In this document: piece by piece, positions 17,960 through 51,652 of the stretch
How the letters are laid out: each line of letters begins with the position of its first letter
Numbering within the stretch: position 1 is the first letter of the stretch
Assembly: GCA_016717305.1 (NCBI GenBank)
Contig: JADKFY010000002.1
Coordinates: forward strand, 346,351 to 410,350
DNA: 64,000 nt
Direction of reading: 5' to 3'
Source: Flavobacteriales bacterium
GTDB lineage: Bacteria > Bacteroidota > Bacteroidia > Flavobacteriales_F > PHOS-HE28
Notes under the pieces: generated by a model
Seen by the model: only the letters and a program-made list of their open reading frames with translations
Told to the model about the DNA's origin: nothing
The model's database searches: none
Position numbers and translations under genes: made by a program

Positions 17960-20557
17960 TCAACGCCCTTGACGTAGCACTTCCACACGTTGGGTGTGGA
18001 TGGACGGGCCTTGTTGGATCTGCAAGAGATATACCCCTTCGGCAAGTGCCGAGAGGTCCATGGAGACCATTTCAGCATTCCCTTGCACGCTATGGGCGAG
18101 TCGCCCTTGAAGATCGAGGATGGAAATGGACGAACGTGTACTTGCGGGCAGGATCAGAGTCAATTTCCCGGAGGTCGGATTGGGATACAACATCACCTCG
18201 GTCGGAACGAGTTCTTCAAGGTCAGTGCTGGTGTCGATGATGATGCCATAGTCTTCAGTTTCCCCGTACACATAGTTGAAGCATGGATCGGTAGGGGATG
18301 GTTCGGTTCCTAGATGGAAAACGCCCCGGACTCTCATCCGAGTAGAACCAAGGACGGCATTGACCGGCACATTGAACGCCATGGAAACGACCTGGCCGGC
18401 CGCTGTTGTAGCCACCTCGCCGAGCTTCTCGGAAGCCTCAAAAACATCATCTTGATCGTAATCTATCCAAGCTGCATAGTTGTCCGCCTCGTATGAACCT
18501 CCTTCAATGAACAAGGTCTGGTCGGTGCCGACCCCGATCGGGGTGAATTGCGTGGCTACATAATTGTTGTAGGTCGGCCCATCGGTACCTCCTGTATTGC
18601 TGTTGTTGATCGCTGCGAGTTCCACGCCGTTGATATAATCACCATCCGCAGGGCCTGTAAGGGATGTTGGAATGCAAGGGCCTGCGATGGGAGTAGTGAT
18701 GGTGATCCCGTAATCCTCGGTCTCGCCATATGCGTAGTTGAAACAAGGATCGGTCGGTGTTGGTTCCCCGGTCCCGTGGTACACACCACGGACACGCAAA
18801 GTCGTTGTGCCCAAAGTAGCACCTGCAGGAACTAGGAAGTTGATCGCCTGTGTTTCACCGACAGTTGTAGTAGCAAATTCGCCCAGTTTCTCGGAAGCCT
18901 CGAAACTGTCGTCCTGATCGTAATCGATCCACGCTGCATAATTGTCGGGCTGAAAGTCGCCTGATGTAATAAAGATGGTTTGGTTGCTACCCCGGGCCAA
19001 CGAAGTGCTGAAGGAAGAAGTGTAGTTGGTATACGTCGGTCCGGTATTGCTGCCGCTGTTCACATTGTTGATCGTAACCAATTGCACCCCGTCGATGAAG
19101 TCGTCATCCGCTGTGCCATTCGCCGATGTGGGGATACAGGGACCAGTTACGGGCGTGGTGATCGTGATCCTGTAATCTTCCGTTTCACCAAAAGCATAGT
19201 TGAAGCAGGGGTCCGTCGGCGTTGGTTCTCCAGTGTTATGATAGACACCTCTTACCCTCAGGACGGTGTTGCCCAATGCAGCCCCGGCGGGTACCACGAA
19301 GTTTATCGCCTGCACTTGACCGATCGCGGTGGTTGCGAATTCACCGAGTTTCTCTGAAGCCTCAAAGGTCTCATCACCATCATAGTCGATCCATGCAGCG
19401 TAGTTGTCAGGTTGGTAATCTCCTGCAGTGATGGTTATGGTTTGATTACTGCCGCGTACCAATGAGGCTGAAAGAGTAGCAGTATAGTCGGTATAGCTCG
19501 GCCCGGTATTGCTGCCACTGTTCACGTTATTGATCGTACCCAATTGCACGCCATCAATGAAATCATCTTGGGTGGTCCCGGAGGTTGATGTGGGTATGCA
19601 GTAACCGGTCGGGGTGGATTGGCACGCATTGGTGTTCAGCAATTGGCTACGTACCCCGGTAAGGACACCGGCCATATAGCTGGACTGTTGATTGGTGAAC
19701 ATGCGTGTGCAGCTCGCGTAGTCCATGAAATTCTCATACTGCGTTAATGTCCCGCACTTCATTAGGTTCGTGTTCGAGCAGGAATAAGTTGGGCTGTCCG
19801 TGGTTGGTGTATCGGCGAAGCCATCCGCGTTAACGCAACCACCGTCATCATCGAAGGTGTGCTGGAGGCCGAAGTAGTGCCCGATCTCATGCGTGGCCGT
19901 GCGGTCGCCAGGTTCCGTTCCGTAGTCGTAGTCGATCACCAATCCATCAATGTTGCTTCCCACCACGCCACCAACTGGCAAGTACGCATAGCCCACGGTA
20001 ATGAAGCCACCTGTGGCACCACTTGCGATGTCGCATATCCAGATGTTCAAATAACGATCCGTGTCCCATGGAGCACGGCCATCGGGAGCCGATTTCATAT
20101 CGTTTGTCTCCGTGTCAGGATCGAACCACGTTTGTGTCGTTTGTGTTCGCGTGATCCCTGTGGTGGCAGCTCCGTTCGGGTCCACTTGGGCAAGGCAGAA
20201 GTTGAAACCGACATTCCCAATGCTGCTTGTAAATTGGGAACGCACACTTCCGATGTCCGTATTGCTCGCGGAATAGTCCGCGTTCAATTCGTCGATGATC
20301 GCTTGGATGGTTCCAGTGGAAACGTTTTCGGGGGTGGTATTGTAGACAACATGGACCACAACGGGAACGGTGTACGTGCCACCGCGCTGGACAAGATCAA
20401 CCCGGGGTAATGCATCAAGAAGGTTGGTGGACAAGCCTTGCGACTGCAAGTACTGTTGCGTGTGCTTCTGTGCACTGCAGGTCCGGTGTTGTTGGGACTG
20501 GGCATTCAAGACCGCAGCGGTGAACAGCAGGCCTCCGAGAAGTATGGTTCGTGTCAT
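17960..20557 (-). CDS. Secreted zinc metalloprotease (metzincin, M43/cytophagalysin-like) with three GEVED domains and T9SS C-terminal sorting domain
   Basis: HEIGHYFGLQHTF is the HExxHxxGxxH metzincin motif. Three repeats of about 125 aa each end in (F/Y)GE(T/V)EDY(R/G)ITI, the GEVED-domain signature. The C-terminus MLYPNPTSGKLTLIL ... GVYLLQIQQGPSIHTQRVEVLRQGR is a T9SS sorting domain. Signal peptide at the N-terminus. Confidence 0.85.
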   Translation of the reverse strand: MTRTILLGGLLFTAAVLNAQSQQHRTCSAQKHTQQYLQSQGLSTNLLDALPRVDLVQRGGTYTVPVVVHVVYNTTPENVSTGTIQAIIDELNADYSASNTDIGSVRSQFTSSIGNVGFNFCLAQVDPNGAATTGITRTQTTQTWFDPDTETNDMKSAPDGRAPWDTDRYLNIWICDIASGATGGFITVGYAYLPVGGVVGSNIDGLVIDYDYGTEPGDRTATHEIGHYFGLQHTFDDDGGCVNADGFADTPTTDSPTYSCSNTNLMKCGTLTQYENFMDYASCTRMFTNQQSSYMAGVLTGVRSQLLNTNACQSTPTGYCIPTSTSGTTQDDFIDGVQLGTINNVNSGSNTGPSYTDYTATLSASLVRGSNQTITITAGDYQPDNYAAWIDYDGDETFEASEKLGEFATTAIGQVQAINFVVPAGAALGNTVLRVRGVYHNTGEPTPTDPCFNYAFGETEDYRITITTPVTGPCIPTSANGTADDDFIDGVQLVTINNVNSGSNTGPTYTNYTSSFSTSLARGSNQTIFITSGDFQPDNYAAWIDYDQDDSFEASEKLGEFATTTVGETQAINFLVPAGATLGTTTLRVRGVYHGTGEPTPTDPCFNYAYGETEDYGITITTPIAGPCIPTSLTGPADGDYINGVELAAINNSNTGGTDGPTYNNYVATQFTPIGVGTDQTLFIEGGSYEADNYAAWIDYDQDDVFEASEKLGEVATTAAGQVVSMAFNVPVNAVLGSTRMRVRGVFHLGTEPSPTDPCFNYVYGETEDYGIIIDTSTDLEELVPTEVMLYPNPTSGKLTLILPASTRSSISILDLQGRLAHSVQGNAEMVSMDLSALAEGVYLLQIQQGPSIHTQRVEVLRQGR

Positions 20558-38553: not shown

Positions 38554-41500
38554 TCACTCCTTCACGAAGCGTGCGCTGGAAAGCTGACCTCGCACGTCCT
38601 GAAGTTGGAACGTGTAGCTCCCAGCTCCCAAACGAGGTAGAGCGATCGACCTTTGGTTCAACCCATCGTCCATCAACAACGGACCTGAAATGGCGATACG
38701 ACCCGTATTGTCAAGGATCCTGTATTGCCCGGAACCTTCGCTCATGCCTTTGAATTCGAGCCCCAATTGCTCGCCGACCGGATTTGGCCGAATGGTGATC
38801 TTTCCAGCGGACGGGCCATGGAAAGCCGTTACCACCCTGGAGAATTCCTCTGAACCTTGGGCATCGATCAGTGCGATCCTGTAATGGTTGGTGCCGATCA
38901 GTGGGGTCGTGTCCATGAATTTATAGGCTTGGGTCCCCGATGTAATCACCGGCACTTCGATAACGCCGATCCCGGCAAAGGTTCGACCATCCGCCGATCG
39001 TTCAATGCGATAACTGCCGGTGTTGTGCGTGCCGGAAGTAAGCCAGTCCACCGAAATTCCCTGTTCCCCTGCGGTTGCGAATAGGTCCAACAGGTCCAGT
39101 GGGGTATAGATGCAATCGATCGAGGCGCCCCCCTGTGTATTCCAATTGAGGGTGAATCCATTGGTGGTGAGGTACCAGTTGTCCAAGAACAGGGTGTACC
39201 ATTGTCCGGGCAATACATCCAAATAGCGTGTCCATCCATCACCGAAAACGCCTTCGGAAATGTCGGTAGCAGTAAAATTCAGACCGGTCACGGCAGCACC
39301 ATCGGCCCACGAACAACGGATCGGCAAGCTATTGGGTGGGCAGGTAATACCACCGGTGTATGGACCCCAAACACCGTAGTCGTAATCGGTGTTGCCCGGT
39401 CCCACGCTGAATCCCAATTATCCGCCGAGATAGACGTAGAAGCTGTACCAGACCCCCCTACGTTCATTGGTGATCAAACAGCCCCGGTTGCTGAAGTTCA
39501 AGTCTTGGACATCACCGATGTTCAGGGGTGTTGCGCTTAGGGATGCATCGCCGCAAACTTGTTCCGCACCAAGGCAATCTTCTTGCGGAGCTGGAGGAAC
39601 GTTGCACAAATTGTCCACCACGAATAGAAAGAAGGGGGTGCTAGGAGGCGTTCCGCTATTCAGCAGCAGTCCACCGTTCTGTGCCCTCACGGTATACCCG
39701 ATCTGGTTCTGGAACCCACCCACCGGTGTATAGGTGATCTGGAAGATATCGGTCGGGTTCCCACCGAAAATTACACTGCCCACCGCACCTGTGATCGTGT
39801 AGTTCGTTACAATGGGTGGCCCGATCCCCAAGGGGAACCGATTGATGGTGACCGTCGATCCGTCCCAGCCATCACCGCCAAGGTCGGTCATGCGCAAGGT
39901 GTACGAACAAGCGCCCGGAGGTGGGTCTGTGCGGCTTGCACAGATCTGGAAGCTGCTCGCCACTGCGGTTCCTTGTCGCCAAACCCGGATATAGACCAGT
40001 TGGCCTGCGGGGGGTAGACCGGCAAGGATGGTCAACTTTGGCATGTCCGTGCCGTTCTGGCTCCCATTGGTGATGCATTGGCCGATCGCAGCCAAACTCA
40101 AGTTGCCACCACCGCAGGTACCGGAGACCACACGGTACACTTCCATGGCGGCATCGGTGAGCGCCCCATCATCAGTATCCAACACCAATTGGCCGTTGGG
40201 GGGCACCACGGCAGTGAACCAGACATCGTTGTTCGCGGCGCCTCCACAACTGGGGTTGGGTACATTGATCGTTCCTGCGGGGGGCGGGGCATTGACAGTG
40301 GTTGTGGCATTCCCCATTGTGGCGCTGTTGAGCGAACAGCCATATTGGACGGTAAGGGGTAACGCCCCGCATGGATCATCGTTAGGTGGTGGTGATGTGG
40401 GTTTGGCGCAGATGGTGAACGTACCGAAGACCGTGGTCTTGTTCCATACACGGACATAAATGACGGTGCCCTGTGGTACAGTAGGTGGGACCAAGGTGAT
40501 CGTGGGCAGCGCAGCACCGCCGGGATCACTGCATGCCACTTCTGTCAAGGTGCCATTGCATGTTCCGGTATACACGGCCATGGCGGCATCGGTCAAGTTG
40601 GCGCTGGGGATATTGATCACCGTACCCACGCTCGGGGTCATCGGAGTTACCGGTGTGGTGAGGGTGAACCACACATCGCGCAAGGGTGCCACGTTGCCAC
40701 ACGTTGGCACGGCAGGGAGGTATGTAGGCCCGGTAGATGGCGTTGCATTCTGCGTGGATGAATTGATCGTTGTACAAGCGGCATCCACGGTAATGGGAGT
40801 AGCGTTGCACGGTTCGTCGTTCACGGGCAAAACCGGGTTGTACGCACAGATCTCGAAAGATCCACCGTTCAGGATATTGCTCTCGGGCCAAACGCGGATA
40901 TAGATCACGTCCCCCGGCGTTAGCCCGGTCCGAAGAAGATAGGGTTGAAGACTTCCGGGAGCGATGTCATCGTTACAATCCAAAACGGTCCAATTGGAAG
41001 CTGGAAGGGCCGGTGCACTGCAAACGGGCGGTATGTACCAAGCCATGCCAATGTTGGTGGCCACGACCAAATTGGTCTCTACGGCCAAATTACCGCTAGG
41101 GGGCACCACGGCGGTAAACCACACGTCCGCATTGTTGGGGTAATTGCCGCAAGGTGGAGTTCCGATACCGGATGTCGCCGTTGCCCAGGTGGTGCCGGAG
41201 GTGATCATGCTGCATGAGTTCCCTACGTTAAGGACTATGGCGGTACACGGGTTGTCGTTCACCGGGGGCGGAGGTACGGGTGAGCAGGTGATCTGGATGG
41301 TTCCGCAAAGGGCTGTGTTGTTCGCACACGTAGGCGGTGGGCCTGAAATGCGGATGTTGTAGCTGGCATTTACCGACGGGTTGAACGTTACGGTGCTCAA
41401 TGGACCACCGCAGCCGTTATCATCCCATACATAGCCCGTGGTTGTACCATTGGAAATGGTCAAGTACGAATTCCAGGATGTATTCGTCGAACTACAAAGT

Positions 41501-41886
41501 GAAATGGTGTACACGTTCGATGCACACATGTAGATGGGGATCCGTTGGCCTTCGCAAACGGTGGTCGTGAACAATGTTGGGCAAGCGGCACACGCACCCG
41601 TTATGGACGCCGGTGGCCAATTCTGAACCCATGTATTCGGTGGAGAAGATACGAGTGGGTTCGGCCAACCGGTCGCATTGGCAGGAACGATGGTGGCGGC
41701 CGTATAACACTGGGCTCTTAATTCCCTGTTGCCCTGCAGTACCACAAAGCCCGCGATCAAGATCACAACCCATCGGTCCATGCTCCACTTTCCACTGCGC
41801 TTTTCACGCGTGCGGTGCAGCGTGCAGTTCTTCGGAGCCGTCCGTGTAACAGTGGGATTTTCGGGTGGTCCTTGTGGCATCGACAA
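38554..41886 (-). pseudogene. Giant modular T9SS cargo protein, paralog 1 (PPC-like beta-sandwich repeats, conserved C-terminal region, Ig-like domain, T9SS sorting domain), interrupted by an in-frame TAA at 39418-39420
   Basis: Track ORFs 39418..41886 and 38554..39417 are in the same frame, separated only by a TAA. Aligned with paralog 2, ...WYSFYVYLGG*LGFSVGPGNTDYDYGVWGPY matches ...AAAGNLAFTISPGGYADYDFAVWGPY, so the stop sits where the paralog has Asn. The downstream 'start' is a TTG in the track. Confidence 0.7.
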
Positions 41887-42076: not shown

Positions 42077-45000
42077 CTACTGCTTCACAAAGCGCACGTT
42101 GCCGATCGGCACACCTTTTCCTTCGAGCACCTCGAGGGCGTAGCTGCCTGATTCTAATTTACCAACAGGCACTGTGAACCGTGTGGTGCCTTCGCTATTG
42201 GTCAACGAACCTTCACCCACTTGGCGGCCGCTCATGTCCAAAATGCGCCAGCGAACCGTGCCTTCAATGGCTTTGCCCAAGGAGGCGTTCAGTGTTTCGG
42301 TGGCCGGGTTGGGGAACACGAACAAGGTGGTGGTGGTTTGGAAATGAACGTTAACGGTACGTGAGATATAGCTTGAACCATCAATGTCCACCTGTTCCAG
42401 ACGATAGTAGTTCATACCATCCTTGGGTGCCCTATCGATGAACTTGTAATCGGTGCGATCCAAGCTCGTGCCAGCGGCACTCACTCTTCCGATCGCTTCA
42501 AAATTGATGCCGTCCACGGACCGTTCAACGATGAAGTGCGAGCTGTTGACCTCTGATCCAGTTGCCCAATCCAGTTCCACATGTTTATCTATCGGTCGAC
42601 CATCAAAATCCAACATTTGGACCGGCAAGACCGTACAGCCCACAGGCCCCGTGAATGTCATCGTGAAGTTGATCGCATTGCGTGACCAGTTATCCACATA
42701 CAAGATGTACTGGGCTCCGAGCGGGGCATTGAGAAATTGAACGAAGCGATCTCCTCCGGCACCTTCAGACAAATCTCCGGAGGTCATGTTCAATCCTGTA
42801 GGTCCACCACCTGCGGCCCATGAACAACGCAACGGTGTACCCAGCGGCCCATTGGGACAACTCGGAATGCCGGAGTATGGTCCCCAAACTGCAAAGTCAT
42901 AATCCGCATAGCCACCTGGTGAAATGGTAAACGCCAAATTTCCGGCTGCCGCTGCGGTGAAACTGTACCACAATCCTACACTTTCACCTGCTAGACACCC
43001 ATCATTGCCCGAATTCAGATCCGCAACAGCACCGGAATTGGCAGGGGCTCCCGCGAGTACGGAAGAAGAACTACAGATACGGAATGCGGACAGGCAGTCA
43101 GCCGGGTTGGGCGGTGGTGCATTGCAATCCGCTGATCCAGAAGCGTTGAAACCCGGTGTTGGCCCTCCTGGAGGGCTGGAGTAAATGAGTAGTCCCAAGT
43201 TGCTTTGAAGACTGTACGAGATCTGGTTCTGGAAGCCTCCTAAGGGGAAATAATCCACTTGGAACGCCGCCCCGTTGGCAACAGGGAAACTCACGGTTCC
43301 ATTAGCGCTCACGATGGTGTAATTGGTGGGCACACCCGCCACGGTTATCCTAACATAGCCGCCATTCCATCCATCCCCACCGGAATCGAACATGCTCAGT
43401 GTGAAATAGCACGCACTAGGTGGAACGAATGGTGGCGTGTCCGTGCGGCTGACACAGAGAAAAGCATTACCCGGAACACCCGTGCTCTGATGCCAGACCC
43501 GAATGAATACCGTATTACCGGGTGTGAGCCCGGTAACGGTTCCGGCTGGCATACCCGAGTTGGTACTGCCAGCTGCCCAACAACCAACCTGCGTAAAGAC
43601 GCTGGCGCAGTTGTTGTTTATGGATGTGGTATAAATGGCGGCGGCGGCATCCGTCATTTGCGCATCATCCATATCGAGGCGCAGCTCTCCGTTTGGGGGT
43701 ACCACGGCCGTGTACCATACATCGGTGTCCGCTGGACCACCACAACCCACTGCAACCCCAGGTATCGCTCCGCCGGTCGGCGTGGCAAGGCCCGTGGTAA
43801 TACCTCGCATCAAACAGCCGTACGGTACAGGGCTGGCTAAAGCAATGGCCCCGCAGGGTTCATCGTTCGGTGGTGGCTGGGACATATAGGCACAGATCTG
43901 GAAGGTGCCGAAGCCAGTTGTCTCGCTCCACATGCGGACATACAGGACTTGCCCTGCGAAGTAGACCGAGGGTGTGAACGTAGGCATTCCAACGCCACCG
44001 TTCTGACATTGGAGGAGTATAAGCGAAGCGCATGAACCGGTTGAACAACCGGGTGCGGAACCGGGCAGAACACAAGGCGAGTAGACCGCCATGGCCATAT
44101 TGGTCAAACTTCCGGCCAAGGTGTTGATGTTCAACGTGCCTGTACTGGGAACTGTGAGCCTGAACCAAACATCGTTGTTTGCCGTACTGCAGCCAGGGTT
44201 TGGGATCACACTGTTGGTGGCATCCTGCGTATTGAAGCTCACAGGCACGCAACCAGGATTGGTAGCAATGAGCGTGGTCGGCGTACAGGGGCTGTCATTG
44301 ATCGGTGGCACCGGGTAATAAGCACACAGCGTGAAGGTACCTCCATTGGTTATGTTGTTTGATGGCCAAACCCGGATGTAGTACAACGCATTGGGAGTTA
44401 AGCCACTCATACTGATGAACGGTGACCGGTCAACACCGGGGATCAGATCACCATTGCACGCGCCTGGTACTTCGGTGAAGCCGCCTGTCACACAGCCGGT
44501 CGTACTCGTATAAAGCGTCATGGCCAGATCTGTTGCGTTGATATGGTCCACATCCAAGGCCAACGTGCCTGTGGGCGAGGCATTCGCACTGAACCATACA
44601 TCGCCGCCCGCCGGGTAACCACCACATACTGGACTAACGCTGATACCTGAAGTTCCAGATGCTCCAGCAGTTGAACCGGGCAACGTAGTGCAGGTAGGTC
44701 CCAGCCCTGTAAAGGCAACTGCACCGGGAATAGCCGGACACGGCGTGAAGAACTGATTACACGGTAAAGGAGGGGTCGTTGGGCAAGGGTCGTCTCCTGC
44801 AGAAGGGCACGCTGCTTGGCCACAGGTAATTTGTACCACAGTACCCGGGATCCCAACCGGACAAAGTGCAAAGGCAGCATTGATATTGATGAAGTAGGAA
44901 CCGGAAGTTTGCGGGGTGAAATTTACGGTGGCATGGGTACCACAGCTGTTGGCATCAAATTCCAAAATTACTGAGGTGGCTGTGGACACGGTGATCGCCG

Positions 45001-45367
45001 AACTGGCTGTGGGCGATCCACAGGTGGTGATCGTATATTGATTGCCGAAGCACATGTACATGGGTATTTTGTACTGTGTTCCGGTCAGTGTGACCGACCA
45101 GGACGCCGGGCAGCTCTCACAATTCTTCTTGTAATTCGCTGGGCTGCACAACGTCATATTGGCACCAGGTCCATTTGGTGCATTTGTCGCAGCATACGAT
45201 CCGAAAGGAGCTGCACCGGGAGACCATGGATAGATCGGTGTGGCCCAAGCAGGACCAGGTCCAACGAGGTTCGGCCCGGCCCCGTTGGTGCAACCTTGCG
45301 CTTGCACGTGATCGGTGTTCACCACGAACAATGTGAAGGCAAATAGAAGAGCGGAAAGTTGCTTCAT
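42077..45367 (-). CDS. Giant modular T9SS cargo protein, paralog 2 (1096 aa, intact)
   Basis: Signal peptide MKQLSALLFAFTLFVVNTDHVQAQG; Cys-rich N-terminal module. Four repeats share ...CGG...DVWF...P..G.L.(L/I)D.....TD.AM.VY...C....T(E/Q)V.C......P......L..G...Y(I/V)R(V/M)W.......GTF..CAY. Also present: a CYFTLSMFDSGGDGWNGG module, a conserved CL..E..G.WYSF....G.L.F.I.P....DYDFAVWGPY....CP.....P.RCSWA block, an Ig-like domain (LDWATGSEVNSSHFIVERSVDG ... NYYRLEQVDIDGSSYIS) and a T9SS sorting domain. Confidence 0.8.
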   Translation of the reverse strand: MKQLSALLFAFTLFVVNTDHVQAQGCTNGAGPNLVGPGPAWATPIYPWSPGAAPFGSYAATNAPNGPGANMTLCSPANYKKNCESCPASWSVTLTGTQYKIPMYMCFGNQYTITTCGSPTASSAITVSTATSVILEFDANSCGTHATVNFTPQTSGSYFININAAFALCPVGIPGTVVQITCGQAACPSAGDDPCPTTPPLPCNQFFTPCPAIPGAVAFTGLGPTCTTLPGSTAGASGTSGISVSPVCGGYPAGGDVWFSANASPTGTLALDVDHINATDLAMTLYTSTTGCVTGGFTEVPGACNGDLIPGVDRSPFISMSGLTPNALYYIRVWPSNNITNGGTFTLCAYYPVPPINDSPCTPTTLIATNPGCVPVSFNTQDATNSVIPNPGCSTANNDVWFRLTVPSTGTLNINTLAGSLTNMAMAVYSPCVLPGSAPGCSTGSCASLILLQCQNGGVGMPTFTPSVYFAGQVLYVRMWSETTGFGTFQICAYMSQPPPNDEPCGAIALASPVPYGCLMRGITTGLATPTGGAIPGVAVGCGGPADTDVWYTAVVPPNGELRLDMDDAQMTDAAAAIYTTSINNNCASVFTQVGCWAAGSTNSGMPAGTVTGLTPGNTVFIRVWHQSTGVPGNAFLCVSRTDTPPFVPPSACYFTLSMFDSGGDGWNGGYVRITVAGVPTNYTIVSANGTVSFPVANGAAFQVDYFPLGGFQNQISYSLQSNLGLLIYSSPPGGPTPGFNASGSADCNAPPPNPADCLSAFRICSSSSVLAGAPANSGAVADLNSGNDGCLAGESVGLWYSFTAAAAGNLAFTISPGGYADYDFAVWGPYSGIPSCPNGPLGTPLRCSWAAGGGPTGLNMTSGDLSEGAGGDRFVQFLNAPLGAQYILYVDNWSRNAINFTMTFTGPVGCTVLPVQMLDFDGRPIDKHVELDWATGSEVNSSHFIVERSVDGINFEAIGRVSAAGTSLDRTDYKFIDRAPKDGMNYYRLEQVDIDGSSYISRTVNVHFQTTTTLFVFPNPATETLNASLGKAIEGTVRWRILDMSGRQVGEGSLTNSEGTTRFTVPVGKLESGSYALEVLEGKGVPIGNVRFVKQ

Positions 45368-45379
45368 GTTCGGTTGGTA

Positions 45380-45826
45380 TTAGCGGTCGTTGGTATGGAG
45401 CGGGGCAACAGAATACGGCTGCTCAGGATGTGCGGCGTTCCAAGTGCCCACAGCGATGCGGTAGCGTTCTTGATCCTCCACCTCATTTCCAGAAACCACG
45501 TAGACCGGTGGCGCATTCGGGTCCGCAGCAGGCAAATAGGTAGAGAGGTCCGCGAGCCCTTCGCGCAATTGGAGCCCGGTGCTTTCGAGCGCTGTGCGCA
45601 TCTCGGCTTCGGAAAGCTGAGCGCTTTTCACCTGCACGATCCGCATGTCGTCGGAGTAGGTCACATTGGCCATAGGGTCGACGTTGGCGACTGCTTCGAT
45701 CATGAACTTCAGGGCCGATCGGTCAAAGGTGTCGGCCACCTCGAAGGAACGGGTCACTGGAGCCTGTGCCAAAACAGAAAAGCCCATAAGTAACAGGGCT
45801 GTTGAGAGGATTGCGCGATACCTCAT
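45380..45826 (-). CDS. Small secreted protein A (HMA-like fold + conserved C-terminal motif), 12 nt upstream of paralog 2
   Basis: Signal peptide MRYRAILSTALLLMGFSVLAQA. The central region has a ferredoxin/HMA-like pattern but lacks CxxC. C-terminal PPVYVVSGNEVEDQERYRIAVGTWNAAHPEQPY is shared with the two other small proteins. Confidence 0.6.
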   Translation of the reverse strand: MRYRAILSTALLLMGFSVLAQAPVTRSFEVADTFDRSALKFMIEAVANVDPMANVTYSDDMRIVQVKSAQLSEAEMRTALESTGLQLREGLADLSTYLPAADPNAPPVYVVSGNEVEDQERYRIAVGTWNAAHPEQPYSVAPLHTNDR

Positions 45827-46007
45827 GGTCGTATTGGAATTTAGAGTTGGCTTAAAGATAGTCGCTTTTTAACGTAAGAAGGCACCAATTTGTTCTTAAT
45901 GTGTTGATCCAACGTTCAAAACACGCATCCTATTTGGACGATAGACGGCATCATGGACCAAGGGTTGCCTAGGTGTTGAAAAGTGGGTCATTGGCAGACG
46001 AACCGGT

Positions 46008-48107
46008 CTATTGCCGTACGAACGGAACCCTTCCGACCACCTCTCCTTTCGCGTCCAGGACCTGCAGGAAATACGAGCCGGGTTCCAGCGTGGCCACAGG
46101 GAATTCCAACCTGATCTCGCCAACGTTGTTCACTTTCCTGAGCTCGTGGACCATGCGGCCACTGGCATCCATGGTACGCAGAGTGATCTGTCCTTGCAAA
46201 GGGGTGTCCAAGAAGAGCGTTGCCGAAGCTGTAACGGGGTTGGGCACCACCAGCAAACCGGTCTTGCCGGTAAGCAGGGCACTGGCCATAGGAGAGTATT
46301 GTTGGGTTCCTGAACGTCCAACGGCAAGGATCCGGTAGTAATTGATGCCCCCTTTTCGCCGTGTGGTCCTCCAGGGAGTAGTTCGTGGTAGAACTGGACT
46401 GGCCCACAGCGGGTAGTCGGCCGACATCCTCAAAGGATATTCCATCGGTGGATCGCTGTGCGATGAAGTGATCGCTTTCACGTTCGGTAGAGGTGGTCCA
46501 TTCAAGTACCACACGGTCCATCTTGGGCTTCGCTTTCAAGTTGATCTCCCCACGGAGAGAACGGTACAGTCCAAGGAAGCCCCACCGCCCAATTGCCAAG
46601 AGAGGTCGAACGCCTGTCCATTGGTTGAGAAATTATCAATGTACATGATGTAGATCTGCCCGGTAGTCGCGGTAATAGGAGCTACCCAGCGGTCGCCGAA
46701 TGCATCTTCGGAATTGTCCACTGACCCATTGCCTGCCCCGGTGCTGCCTGTGGGTGCCGCGTAGGAGCAGCGCAAAGGCGGACCGGGCGGTGGGCAACTT
46801 ACGGAGGCCATTGGTCCCCAAACGGCAAAATCGTAGTCCGTGGCCACAATCGGTGCTATAGTGAAGCCGATGCTGCCGCCGGCACTGGGTGAGAAGTAGT
46901 ACCATGTACCTTGCCGTTCACCGGCCAACAGACAGCCCGCGTTGGTGCCGTCCAGATCCACAACATTGCCGGTGTTGGCACTGTTGTTATTGAAGGACTG
47001 GCCCCCGCAAATGGTGGCCCCGCCAGCACAATCCTGCGGTGCAGCAGGCGGTGGTTGGCAATTGATGGTTTGTGTGAAGGAGATCCCCGCAGCGGGTGAG
47101 GTACCGGATTGGAAGAGTTGACCCCCGCCTCCGCTGATACTGAGGCTATACCGGTTCTCGTATTGGAAAGGACCGGAGTTGTTATAAGTAAGTACGATCA
47201 CCTGCCCAATATTGACCCCGATAAGCACTTGCCTTGAGTACCCGGTAACCGAATAATAGGTGAATGCTCCCCCGTTGATGCTGACCCCGACATTGGACGA
47301 ACCCCAACCATCGCCGAACGAATCGAAAAGGCTGAGCACGTAAACGCAATCGCCTGCTGGAGGAGGAACGGGCGGAGCACAGGAAATACTTGCCGTCCAA
47401 CCCGGGTAGGGGATGCTCCCATCCGAAGAAAAGCCCAGCGTTAAACAGCCACTGGGGTCGGTGGATGTAAAGGGTCCGGGACTACCGGTTCCACTGAAGG
47501 AACCCAAGGGAGGAGACCCGGCGTTGGGGCCATTGAATATCGTAACGATATCGAAGTTCGCTTCGGTACTGAATTGCGAAAAGGTCATGGTGACCACATC
47601 TCCGGGTGTTGAAGGGCAGTAGGTGGTGTACGTGGTGCTGTTGTTGGCATAGTTGCCAGCGGCGCCGCCGCTATCGTAAATGGTGGAGCCACATGCGGGC
47701 GGTGGCGGCACGAGCGGTGCGCACGAGATATTGATGGCCCAGCCGGCGTAGTTGATCGAAAGATCGGAGGTGAACCAGAGCGTTACACAGCCCCCTGCCA
47801 CGGTACCGGAAATGGCGGGTGGAAGTCCGGTTCCGTCGAACAGACCCAGCATTGGTGCCGCGTTGGTCGCACCATCATGAATGGAAAGTTGATCGTACCC
47901 AGCTTCCGTATTGAATGCGGTAAAGGTGAGCGTGACCACTTGGCCCGCGGGTGCGCAGTAGGTCCATGTATAGTTTTCGTTGGCCCCGTAATTGCCTCCT
48001 GCACCACCGGTATCATAAACGGTGGTACCGCATTGTGCCATCATGGAAACTTGTGCGGCGCAGCCGGCTAAGCAGCACAGAAGAAGGGTGCGTGCATAGT
48101 TATTCAT
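46008..48107 (-). pseudogene. Giant modular T9SS cargo protein, paralog 3 (two N-terminal CUB-like domains), C-terminus split by two single-base homopolymer frameshifts
   Basis: Track ORF 46536..48107 (523 aa) carries two CUB-like domains (CGTTVYDTGGAGGNYGANENYTWTYC ... ; CGSTIYDSGGAAGNYANNSTTYTTYC ...). It ends ...GGASLDCTVLSVGRST*. The Ig-like domain continues in a second frame (VLEWTTSTERESDHFIAQRSTDG..., ORF 45988..46599) and the T9SS sorting domain in a third (GINYYRIL ... LLVVPNPVTASATLF ... GSYFLQVLDAKGEVVGRVPFVRQ, ORF 46008..46514). One extra C in the C4 run at 46548-46551 and one fewer in the C5 run at 46348-46352 restore a single frame matching the paralogs. Confidence 0.7.
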
Positions 48108-48561
48108 AGGGCACAGGTTGAATGTTGCGTTGTGCCTGTCTTAGCGCATCGTGAGCTTCGGGGTTTTCCAAGCGCCACGCTTGTTTTGCTTGTACAAAAG
48201 CCGCTTCATCCGCATCGGGGTGGCCTGTATCCAAGTATTGAGGGAACGGGGATCCCACCTCCACTGTTCCTTGCTTTACGGACCGGTGGGAAGGGTCATG
48301 GGTGAAGGTACCCTGCTCCAACCTGTTCAACGTCTTTTCCGTTCGCGAAGGAAGGATACGGCTGTCCATACGAACCTTGAGTTGTGTCTCTTGGATGGAA
48401 ACCATCGCCTGTGGGTCCAAGGAAGCGATCGCTGCACGGACGAATTTCTCGGCTGGACGAATGTCCACCGAGCAATTGAACCGATGCACCACTGTTGCCC
48501 CCTGCGCAAAGGACAGGAATGGGATCAGTGACAAAATGAAGATAAAGTAGGGTCTCATCAT
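48100..48561 (-). CDS. Small secreted protein B (HMA-like fold + conserved C-terminal motif), overlapping the start of paralog 3 by 8 nt
   Basis: Signal peptide MMRPYFIFILSLIPFLSFAQG (internal Met of track ORF 48100..48597). C-terminal FPQYLDTGHPDADEAAFVQAKQAWRLENPEAHDAL. Confidence 0.6.
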   Translation of the reverse strand: MMRPYFIFILSLIPFLSFAQGATVVHRFNCSVDIRPAEKFVRAAIASLDPQAMVSIQETQLKVRMDSRILPSRTEKTLNRLEQGTFTHDPSHRSVKQGTVEVGSPFPQYLDTGHPDADEAAFVQAKQAWRLENPEAHDALRQAQRNIQPVPYE

Positions 48562-48597
48562 GCGAACTTGGATCGTTTCCCCCCGAAAAACATGCAC

Positions 48598-49171
48598 AAT
48601 ATAGGAAAATGTTGTTTCGTGCTTTCACGTTTCCGACCACAGTAGTTGAACGTATCGAGCGGCCCGAGTGAAAAGCGTCCTTCCATTGGAAAGACGCATG
48701 TGGTTCGAAAAGGTTGCCAGCAAGCGTCTTGGACGCGTTCGTGCACCATGCGCATTGGTGTAAACCTAAGATGCTCAGAAAGCCGGTTATCCCCAGCGCT
48801 TTTGAGCCTTGCAAGGGCAACATAGCACAGCGATGGGCCTTCGCCCATTGTTCCAGAATGACGCGACGTTTCCAAGCCCTGGAAGGGCGAAATAGCACGG
48901 ACCTCCTAGATCTATTGGAGCGTATTGGCGTGGAACTATTACGCCCCTGTAGGGCTCCAAAGAACATTGCCTGCGCAAAACGATGGGTTGATCCCGCAGT
49001 CCGATACGACTGGCTGCGGGACCATCGCTTAGCTATGCCGGCCTCTCAGGGCTGTCCTTCAGGTAGTAACCCGCTCTTAGGTATACGCCAATGTGTACAA
49101 TGCGGGAGCACCGGGACCAGTGCGGACGAGGAGCGGGGAACGGACAGTTCAACCCAAGGCCACCGTATCGG
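48598..49171. promoter_or_regulatory. 575-bp non-coding spacer between cassette units with repeated motifs and palindromes (probable promoter/regulatory region for unit B)
   Basis: Two copies of a 26-nt motif, gccttgcaagggcaacatagcacagcg (about 48801) and gccctggaagggcgaaatagcacggac (about 48876). Also a palindrome atgggccttcgcccat (about 48826) and an inverted repeat cccgcag ... ctgcggg (about 48985-49015). No convincing ORF. Confidence 0.3.
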
Positions 49172-51139
49172 CTAACTTTTCTGGAAGCGCGCAGTGCCTG
49201 GTGCACTGCCATCGGGAAGGGAAAGGCGCACCAAATAGGTCCCTTGCACCAACTCGCCGATCTCCATCATCAGGAGACCGTCATCCAGTATGTTCATTTT
49301 CCGCTTCAGCACGATACGCCCGGTGAGGTCGAGCACTTCCACAACTGCCGTGCCCGTTACATGTTTCGGGGAAAGGATCTGTATGCGGTCCGTTGCTGGA
49401 TTGGGTACTACGCGGATCGCATTTTCCGAATGTAGGATCATGGCGGTGACCACGGGTGAGTATTCGAAACTACCGTCAAGATCGAGCTGCTTGACCCTGT
49501 AATAGTTCAAACCTGCGTATGGTGTGCGGTCCACGAGATCGTAATTGATCCGCTCTCTGGACTCACCAGCAGCGTCCATTTGCCCGATGGGGCTGAAAGA
49601 AATGTTATCGGAGGAGCGTTCCACGATGTAGGATGCGGAACCCCTTTCGGTAACGGTGGTCCATTCCACGAGTACTTCTTCTCCAACCGCAGTTGCCCTC
49701 ATGTCCACCAATTCAATGGGCAGCACATTGCAGTCCAACGATGCCCCGCCGGAGAGGCTCCAATTCAGGGTGAATGCTTGTCCGGTAATGTCGAAATTGT
49801 CGATGTACATGACGTACTTCTGCCCGGCGGTCACCGTGATGGCGGACGTGAATCCATCCACTGTGCTCATGGACCCATCACCCTCACTGGGGTCGCTTGA
49901 CGTGGTGCGCATACCGAGCTCGAAAGCGGAATTGGCGGGGTAGCCGGCCACGTTGGGAGGATAGGCCCAAGAGCAGCGCAAAGGTGGATCCGGCGGAGGG
50001 CAGGCAATGGTGTTATAGGGCCCCCAAATAGCGAAGTCATAGTCCACGTTCCCGGTCGGTGCAATGATGAGTCCGATAGTGCCGCTCACCGAGGGTGAGA
50101 AGAAGTACCAGGTCCCTTGTCGTTCATTCCCCATGAGGCAGCCACGGTTGGTCCCTGAGAGGTCTGATGTGCACCCGGTGTAGTCCGTGGAGTTGTTCAA
50201 TTGTTGATCACCGCAAACGGTATAGCCGCCTGAACAATCTTCTTGTGGTGTGGCAAAGTTGCTGATGCTGCCGACACATAGACCGAAGGTGCCAGTGGCG
50301 CCTGAGCGGCCCCAATAGCGGATCATGTAGGGTGCATTGGGGGTCAAGGTGAGGCAGCGCCGATCGATCCTTGGCATTCTCCCGACGCCATCATCGTCGT
50401 CACATTCCACATTGGCAAAGGAGGTGCAGTTGCCTGATACGAGCTGCATGACGCCGTCCTGCAAGGTGCCCGGCACAGAATTGATGATCACCACGCCATT
50501 GGAGGGTGCGGTGAAGCTGAACCAGACATCGCGGGAATTGGCATTGTTCCACGTACCGCCGCATGTCGGGTTGGGCGTTTGCGTGGAACGTGAAGCCCCC
50601 ACATTGGAATAGGTCTGCATGAAACAGCCATCGAGCACAAGCAAGGGGATGGCACCGCTGCATTCGTTGTTGGTCACTGCAGGTGGTGTGGTGGCGCAGG
50701 TAATGATCAGTGTTGCGCATAGGTTATTGCTCGCACAATTGTACCGATCAACCAGCACCCTCAATTGCCCGGTGAAGGTTGCGGTCCAGACCAGGTAGGA
50801 TGTGACACCTCCGCAGTAGCCACTATCGTCATTGAAGCCCAGACTTCCGCCGCCCGCATTGTTGTAGATCGTGATCTGGGTATCGAAGGGTGCACCGCAG
50901 GTGGAGAACGTATAGTTGCGACCTGTGGTCACGTTCACCAGAGCGTATTCTCCCCCGGTAATACACGAGATCGTTGTTTGGCCCGGGCAGTTCGGCGATA
51001 TGGTACCACCGGCCAGCAACGTATTGTTATTCGTGCACTGCCCAAAGCTGCCGATGTTCGAGGAGGCGATCACCAATGCCAGTAACAGTGCGGTTGGGAG
51101 CACCAATGGGCCGGCTTGGAAATTGGTCTGTGTTCGCAT
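49172..51139 (-). CDS. Giant modular T9SS cargo protein, paralog 4 (655 aa, intact)
   Basis: Signal peptide; N-terminal Cys-rich module; two PPC-like repeats. The conserved block reads DCSGGYTVCGDQQL ... RGCLMGNERQGTWYFFSPSVSGTIGLIIAPTGNVDYDFAIWGPYNTIACPPPDPPLRCSWA. An Ig-like domain and a T9SS sorting domain follow (... GTYLVRLSLPDGSAPGTARFQKS). Confidence 0.8.
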   Translation of the reverse strand: MRTQTNFQAGPLVLPTALLLALVIASSNIGSFGQCTNNNTLLAGGTISPNCPGQTTISCITGGEYALVNVTTGRNYTFSTCGAPFDTQITIYNNAGGGSLGFNDDSGYCGGVTSYLVWTATFTGQLRVLVDRYNCASNNLCATLIITCATTPPAVTNNECSGAIPLLVLDGCFMQTYSNVGASRSTQTPNPTCGGTWNNANSRDVWFSFTAPSNGVVIINSVPGTLQDGVMQLVSGNCTSFANVECDDDDGVGRMPRIDRRCLTLTPNAPYMIRYWGRSGATGTFGLCVGSISNFATPQEDCSGGYTVCGDQQLNNSTDYTGCTSDLSGTNRGCLMGNERQGTWYFFSPSVSGTIGLIIAPTGNVDYDFAIWGPYNTIACPPPDPPLRCSWAYPPNVAGYPANSAFELGMRTTSSDPSEGDGSMSTVDGFTSAITVTAGQKYVMYIDNFDITGQAFTLNWSLSGGASLDCNVLPIELVDMRATAVGEEVLVEWTTVTERGSASYIVERSSDNISFSPIGQMDAAGESRERINYDLVDRTPYAGLNYYRVKQLDLDGSFEYSPVVTAMILHSENAIRVVPNPATDRIQILSPKHVTGTAVVEVLDLTGRIVLKRKMNILDDGLLMMEIGELVQGTYLVRLSLPDGSAPGTARFQKS

Positions 51140-51148
51140 CGCAGGGTC

Positions 51149-51652
51149 CTATGGTGTGTCGCAAGGCGCGCTCAATATCAATTGCTCGTACGCTTCGGGA
51201 TAGCGGTCGATCCAGCGTGACTTTTCCGTGTCATAGGTTGCGGCATCCTGATCGGGGTTGCCGGTGTCGGGGTAGACGGGAAAAGGTTCAGCGGCAGGTA
51301 GCGGTGCGGGCCCGTTGGCGGTATCGCGAAGGGTGATAAGGCGCATGCCGGCCACCTCCAATGCGGCACCCATTTGGCCATAGCTAAGCGGGTACGGTGG
51401 TGAGATGAGCAAGTGCGTGGGTTCGCGGAGGAATTCGATCTCCGATCCCGGGAAGGAATTCAAGAGGGCAGAGAGCACCGGCTTGGTAGCACGATCCATG
51501 TTGCCGGTCCCCAAGATCATTTCATACACGGGAGCACCGGTCCCTTGAGCTTGAACACTGCTGTACACGCCCATGGTCAAGACGAGGCACAAGACCTTTA
51601 CGGAACGCGCAACGTGCCAGTGGGATGGGGAGAAAGTGCACAAATGTGTCAT
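51149..51652 (-). CDS. Small secreted protein C (HMA-like fold + conserved C-terminal motif), 9 nt upstream of paralog 4
   Basis: Hydrophobic signal-like N-terminus (... VKVLCLVLTMGVYSSVQAQG). C-terminal FPVYPDTGNPDQDAATYDTEKSRWIDRYPEAYEQL. Confidence 0.6.
   Translation of the reverse strand: MTHLCTFSPSHWHVARSVKVLCLVLTMGVYSSVQAQGTGAPVYEMILGTGNMDRATKPVLSALLNSFPGSEIEFLREPTHLLISPPYPLSYGQMGAALEVAGMRLITLRDTANGPAPLPAAEPFPVYPDTGNPDQDAATYDTEKSRWIDRYPEAYEQLILSAPCDTP

Follow-up and report, generated by a model that had tools for sequence, protein, structure and literature searches.

A conserved C-terminal motif marks small exported proteins encoded beside T9SS cargo genes across Bacteroidota

The locus raises the question of what three small proteins, referred to here as A, B, and C, do in the cell envelope, and why each of them is encoded directly in front of a large secreted protein. 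The window, i.e., the whole 64,000-nucleotide stretch of Flavobacteriales DNA that was analyzed, contains the three open reading frames (ORFs) on the minus strand, as given in a preliminary description of the sequence, and the three C-termini quoted there are present. The features of the small proteins are as follows.

51149..51652, minus strand: small protein A (167 aa), with a signal peptide, an HMA-like domain, and the C-terminal motif
51323..51526, minus strand: HMA-like domain of A (aa 43-110)
51179..51283, minus strand: C-terminal motif of A, FPVYPDTGNPDQDAATYDTEKSRWIDRYPEAYEQL (aa 124-158; predicted helices 133-150 and 152-161)
48100..48561, minus strand: small protein B (153 aa; probable ATG start 48561; ORF listed as 48100-48597)
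48142..48246, minus strand: C-terminal motif of B, FPQYLDTGHPDADEAAFVQAKQAWRLENPEAHDAL (aa 106-140)
45380..45826, minus strand: small protein C (148 aa)
45563..45757, minus strand: HMA-like domain of C (aa 24-88)
45413..45511, minus strand: C-terminal motif of C, PPVYVVSGNEVEDQERYRIAVGTWNAAHPEQPY, a divergent variant (aa 106-138)

The GTG start of B at 48597 is probably too far upstream and the ATG at 48561 is likelier, because the orthologues are 153 aa long; one of the collected sequences (P0013) is 100% identical to B. A sequence identical to A (P0001) occurs on 13 contigs, and C corresponds to NCBI entry MBK9762591.1, which is annotated as a "hypothetical protein". In pairwise BLASTP, the three proteins resemble one another more than chance would allow (A/B, E = 2e-8, 47% over the 36-aa motif; A/C, E = 1e-7, 31% over 133 aa, which is the full length; B/C, E = 1e-4). 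The grouping into one family, proposed in the preliminary description, is borne out by these values and by a family profile run against 1.84 billion representatives, which matches 733 clusters (50% identity) with E ≤ 1e-3, of which 193 reach E ≤ 1e-10; the family is thus real and sizeable. Two weak matches were set aside: that of B to the Rv0078B antitoxin (Pfam E = 0.081) is below the cut-off and is regarded as noise, and P0041, a 5830-aa protein with 23 weak profile matches that the domain HMMs miss, is an RTX-like repeat adhesin and was counted as a false positive inflated by its repeats.

The N-termini of A, B, and C consist of a basic n-region and a hydrophobic h-region and end in ...A|Q, in agreement with the signal peptides described previously. 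The near-invariant Gln after the cleavage site fits the "Q-rule" of signal peptidase I (PMC10653852). The signal peptides contain neither the lipobox nor the Cys at the cleavage site (...A|Q here) by which a bacterial lipoprotein is recognized. A T9SS sorting domain (Por_Secre_tail/TIGR04183 or CHU_C) was not detected at E ≤ 1 in A, B, C, and 20 relatives, and the length that remains after the HMA domain could not accommodate a C-terminal sorting domain (CTD) of 80 aa. The full architecture comprises the signal peptide, an HMA/Atx1-like domain that lacks a metal site, a linker, and a C-terminal mini-domain of about 35 residues.

The first domain, of about 65 residues, takes a ferredoxin-like β-α-β-β-α-β fold that superposes on HMA structures. 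This topology, anticipated from the sequence, is seen in the AF2 models of C (pLDDT 92.8) and A (pLDDT 68), the latter with an additional helical hairpin, and Foldseek matches it to ScAtx1 (E = 1.4e-4). The family profile searched against PDB sequences likewise finds ScAtx1 (E = 1.3e-4) and GolB (E = 0.029). The Bacteroidales-type N-terminal module is also HMA-like (hhalign 95.8%), and its profile matches Ccc2a at E = 2.5e-5. The Pfam HMA model (PF00403), on the other hand, has no match at E ≤ 1 in any member scanned. The GMxCxxC metal loop between β1 and α1 is absent, and there is no CxxC anywhere in A, B, or C; the earlier term "cysteine-less" holds strictly for C only, since B has Cys30 and mature A has Cys164 at its far C-terminus. 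In an alignment of 103 members, residues Q, K, P, T, G, D, W, and P hardly vary, and no column of conserved Cys, His, or Met was found.

The HMA fold might suggest a periplasmic metallochaperone that loads metal onto the cargo, and the remote homology to Atx1, GolB, and CopZ appears to be genuine. The absence of metal ligands, in a family whose member C is free of cysteine, makes this reading scarcely credible, and we reject it as close to refuted. In contrast to the cytoplasmic HMA/Atx1-like domains (PF00403; Synechocystis ScAtx1, Salmonella GolB, and human ATOX1), the proteins described here are exported, have neither CxxC nor another conserved metal ligand, carry a fused novel C-terminal mini-domain, and are encoded next to secretion cargo instead of metal pumps.

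The mini-domain has the consensus P.Y.DTGNP..D...Y..AK..W...NPE.Y and is laid out as an extended P-x-Y segment, a DTGNP turn, a helix bearing the Y, K, and W residues, and a terminal NPE.Y. In the AF2 model of C, the extended segment is followed by a helix at residues 115-132 (pLDDT 91-96). The arrangement may resemble the pancreatic-polypeptide fold (polyproline segment, turn, and helix). The earlier statement that the motif belongs to no named family stands: the motif profile finds nothing significant in the PDB, and a relation to TPR/Sel1-like repeats was dismissed, as it consists of a single TPR_8 match, in a protein with several repeats, that falls short of the curated cut-off (E = 0.0012). 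CteX, a cysteine protease of the Chromobacterium T3SS (9wau), was matched at E = 0.16-0.31, which is not significant. The mini-domain is a novel one and the single feature that many otherwise different small exported proteins of Bacteroidota have in common; the genes of these proteins lie ahead of T9SS cargo genes with type A or type B sorting domains.

Each of the three small genes precedes a large gene on the same strand, and the region contains the following additional features.

49172..51139, minus strand: cargo A (655 aa), with a signal peptide, GBD_T9SS_assoc, bigdom, a β-sandwich, and a type A T9SS CTD
49706-50254, minus strand: bigdom of cargo A (aa 296-478), conserved and Cys-rich (HMM E = 3.7e-91)
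48675..48697, minus strand: terminator-like hairpin between cargo A and small B (10-bp stem, 6 GC pairs, T-run)
46008..48107, minus strand: cargo B, with two CUB domains (Pfam CUB, E = 3.1e-18), bigdom, a β-sandwich, and a CTD
46548-47057, minus strand: bigdom of cargo B (aa 351-520)
42077..45367, minus strand: cargo C (1096 aa), with GBD_T9SS_assoc repeats, bigdom, a β-sandwich, and a type A CTD
42611-43123, minus strand: bigdom of cargo C (aa 749-919; HMM E = 4.9e-82)
38554..41886, minus strand: fourth bigdom-type cargo paralogue, with a partial bigdom match (GBD_T9SS_assoc, E = 5.8e-9)

The span 45380-51652 holds two of these large genes, which the preliminary description did not mention, and the cargo context was missed there. 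The large downstream proteins combine a Sec signal peptide with a C-terminal sorting domain, the features by which a T9SS substrate is recognized. The Pfam assignments are GBD_T9SS_assoc (E = 8.1e-7) and Por_Secre_tail (E = 1.7e-6) for cargo A, supported also by the alignment of the paralogues, and GBD_T9SS_assoc (E = 2.3e-13) and Por_Secre_tail (E = 9.8e-10) for cargo C. Cargo A begins 9 nt past the stop of small A, the ATG of cargo B overlaps small B by 8 nt, and cargo C begins 12 nt past the stop of small C, as read from the junction sequence. In the window, cargo B is broken by a 1-bp deletion at about 46552 and a 1-bp insertion at about 46356 (indels relative to L002); the fragment at 46008-46514 matches the CTD HMM, and the orthologues in L001-L004 are intact (678/699 aa). 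Scans for sigma-70 promoters and for terminators gave no more sites than expected from shuffled sequence, and one hairpin was worth noting, that at 48675..48697, which weakly suggests that each pair may form its own transcription unit.

The domain that we call bigdom bears the signature DYDFA(V/I)WGP / DDYDWAVY and shows no recognizable catalytic signature. It is a divergent GBD_T9SS_assoc domain (PF23759): of 27 members, 5 match the Pfam model, and weakly so (best E = 3.7e-6). PF23759 is a domain family of the cargo and not of the small proteins, and clearer copies of it lie elsewhere in the same cargo proteins. Bigdom differs as a distinct subtype whose conservation is much higher; at least six of its cysteines are conserved, and five do not vary in a 27-sequence alignment.

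The pairing of small gene and cargo gene extends beyond the window. The same three pairs are found in four related contigs. A family-profile search with inspection of the genomic neighbors, the check advised in the preliminary description, gave the layout of small gene followed by cargo in 5 of 5 independent look-ups of profile hits. We collected 84 Bacteroidota loci with a hand-made degenerate DNA pattern; in this search the motif is restricted to Bacteroidota, the phylum with T9SS. All 84 loci come from metagenome-assembled genomes, and we know of no cultured model organism that carries the family. Where a motif ORF in these loci has room downstream, the next ORF is on the same strand and at least 230 aa long in 86 of 91 cases, with a median gap of 11.5 nt and a median complete length of 835 aa, and 82 of the 86 downstream ORFs have a hydrophobic N-terminus. 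Behind ORFs of the family type, the next ORF encodes bigdom in 26 of 30 cases; the four exceptions consist of ORF fragments, three on "tig..." contigs, and resemble split genes. Among the 21 complete neighbors of non-family motif proteins, 18 have a sorting domain at the C-terminus, CHU_C in 12 and Por_Secre_tail in 6. Taken together, the gene order indicates that genes with the motif form a hitherto undescribed class whose members are paired with T9SS cargo across Bacteroidota.

The two genes of a pair also covary. Orthologous pairs are concordant between genomes, and the distances among small proteins correlate with those among bigdoms (r = 0.68; Mantel, 0/2000 permutations; relatedness uncorrected); the small gene and the cargo gene were duplicated and inherited as a unit. 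Similarity in the N-terminal part of the small protein predicts similarity of the cargo N-terminus (92% versus 38%, 0/2000 permutations, relatedness uncorrected), and bigdom is present in the cargo of 36 of 40 HMA-like modules versus 5 of 35 other modules (Fisher p = 1e-11, relatedness uncorrected). By these comparisons, the type of N-terminal module tracks the class of cargo. Each small gene is thus found next to the gene of one cognate secreted protein and is inherited together with it, as a chaperone or adaptor gene would be.

The three proteins are paralogous and predicted to be periplasmic, and we give an even chance to the reading that each is a dedicated escort or adaptor of the T9SS cargo encoded immediately downstream. 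The small protein would be exported by Sec and cleaved by signal peptidase I; its variable N-terminal module, here HMA-like, would bind the cognate cargo in the periplasm, with bigdom as a plausible site, and the invariant mini-domain would engage something common to all, which could be a component of the T9SS or of the envelope, or else a general property of the cargo. With both contacts in place, the small protein could stabilize, mask, or hand over the large, multi-domain, Cys-rich cargo before T9SS transport. We infer this mechanism, including cargo binding and the need for the small protein in export, from gene context and covariation.

The partners of other secretion systems offer a comparison. 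T3SS class I chaperones, the T6SS Eag/DUF1795 and DUF4123 adaptors, and the small helical partners associated with T7SS LXG proteins are cytoplasmic; they are small, encoded directly upstream of a cognate large secreted protein, and co-duplicated with it. Like them, the proteins described here join a conserved element common to all with a variable part that is matched to the cargo, but their Sec signal peptides would place their action in the periplasm. The two groups are not related in sequence or fold.

Several observations count against an escort. A review (PMC10202324) reports the CTD as both necessary and sufficient for secretion, so that an extra factor is not obviously needed. Two T9SS cargo genes in the window have no small partner. 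One encodes the M43 peptidase (17960-20557); the other is that of the fourth bigdom paralogue, which is separated from cargo C by a 190-nt gap and contains an in-frame TAA at 39418-39420. Within one locus, the small paralogues share about 30% identity versus 76% for bigdom, and such rapid divergence would not be expected of an HMA-like domain that binds a conserved surface on bigdom. Aromatic residues, Pro, and Gly make up most of the conserved motif positions, and their conservation may therefore serve folding rather than docking.

The fast evolution of the small partner would suit a different role, in which it covers a site that the cargo uses for binding or catalysis (e.g., a lectin-like bigdom) in the periplasm and stays behind on export, in the manner of an immunity protein or a detached prodomain. 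Such an inhibitor would fit the ratio of partner to cargo, which is close to one to one, the overlap or near-adjacency of their genes, and the match of N-terminal module type to cargo class; prodomains are known to inhibit T9SS proteases in the periplasm (PMC10202324). Bigdom, however, is a divergent GBD_T9SS_assoc domain that lacks a catalytic mark, and neither the one invariant mini-domain shared by partners of unrelated cargo nor the proteins made solely of tandem mini-domains would be explained; we regard this role as improbable. A low probability also applies to a co-secreted subunit that binds the folded cargo in the periplasm, travels with it through the T9SS (a system that transports folded proteins), and acts outside the cell as part of a surface adhesin or enzyme. 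Tight gene coupling and co-inheritance would be expected for such a subunit as for an escort, and the cargo genes are adhesin-like, with CUB, GBD, PKD, SprB, and HYR domains, whereas the small proteins have no T9SS CTD and piggy-back export is undocumented in the T9SS reviews consulted (including PMC10202324).

The mini-domain also occurs in 2 to 6 tandem copies in some proteins, and arrays made of it alone exist (P0026, P0033, and P0073). These arrays, and the abundance of Y, F, and W in the motif, which is shared by known cell-wall-binding repeats, would fit a tether that attaches to a repeating polymer of the envelope, such as peptidoglycan or a glycan, and holds the protein in place beneath the outer membrane. 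The motif shows no similarity to a known wall-binding repeat in Pfam or the PDB, and a tether alone leaves the link to T9SS cargo unexplained. We consider it quite improbable as a separate function; the polymer could instead be the common partner in the escort model. In a wider form of the escort model, which we think rather unlikely, the mini-domain would be an unrecognized phylum-wide handle by which escorts deliver very large substrates to the T9SS, with interchangeable N-terminal modules reading cargo classes, and would add a second, trans-acting layer of targeting or handover on top of the CTD.

We know of no cargo-dedicated periplasmic escort or adaptor for the T9SS. Literature searches for a T9SS cargo-specific chaperone, the motif string, and GBD_T9SS_assoc found nothing relevant, and a 2023 effector review (PMC10202324) leaves chaperones unmentioned. 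T9SS substrates are thought to need only the CTD and the general machinery (PorV/SprF carriers and SkpA). An escort, if real, would add a missing step, namely how giant, Cys-rich, multi-domain substrates stay competent and are handed over in the periplasm. The motif would then be a simple genomic marker for such cargo and a new domain family for Pfam, the HMA fold would have been reused in bacteria as a protein-recognition module, and clear gene pairs would be available for deletion and pull-down.

Among the accessory proteins of the T9SS, PorP/SprF are cognate carriers of type B cargo, PorV serves type A, and SkpA is a chaperone in the translocon (PMC10994853; PMC12618676). PorP/SprF and PorV are outer-membrane β-barrels and SkpA is a general trimeric chaperone, whereas the motif proteins are small, soluble, and cargo-specific. 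Like PorP/SprF, the motif genes are encoded beside the cargo, but upstream instead of downstream, and the motif proteins occur with both CTD types, across several orders. In four type B operons, the two arrangements are combined, and the order reads small gene, cargo, PorP/SprF.

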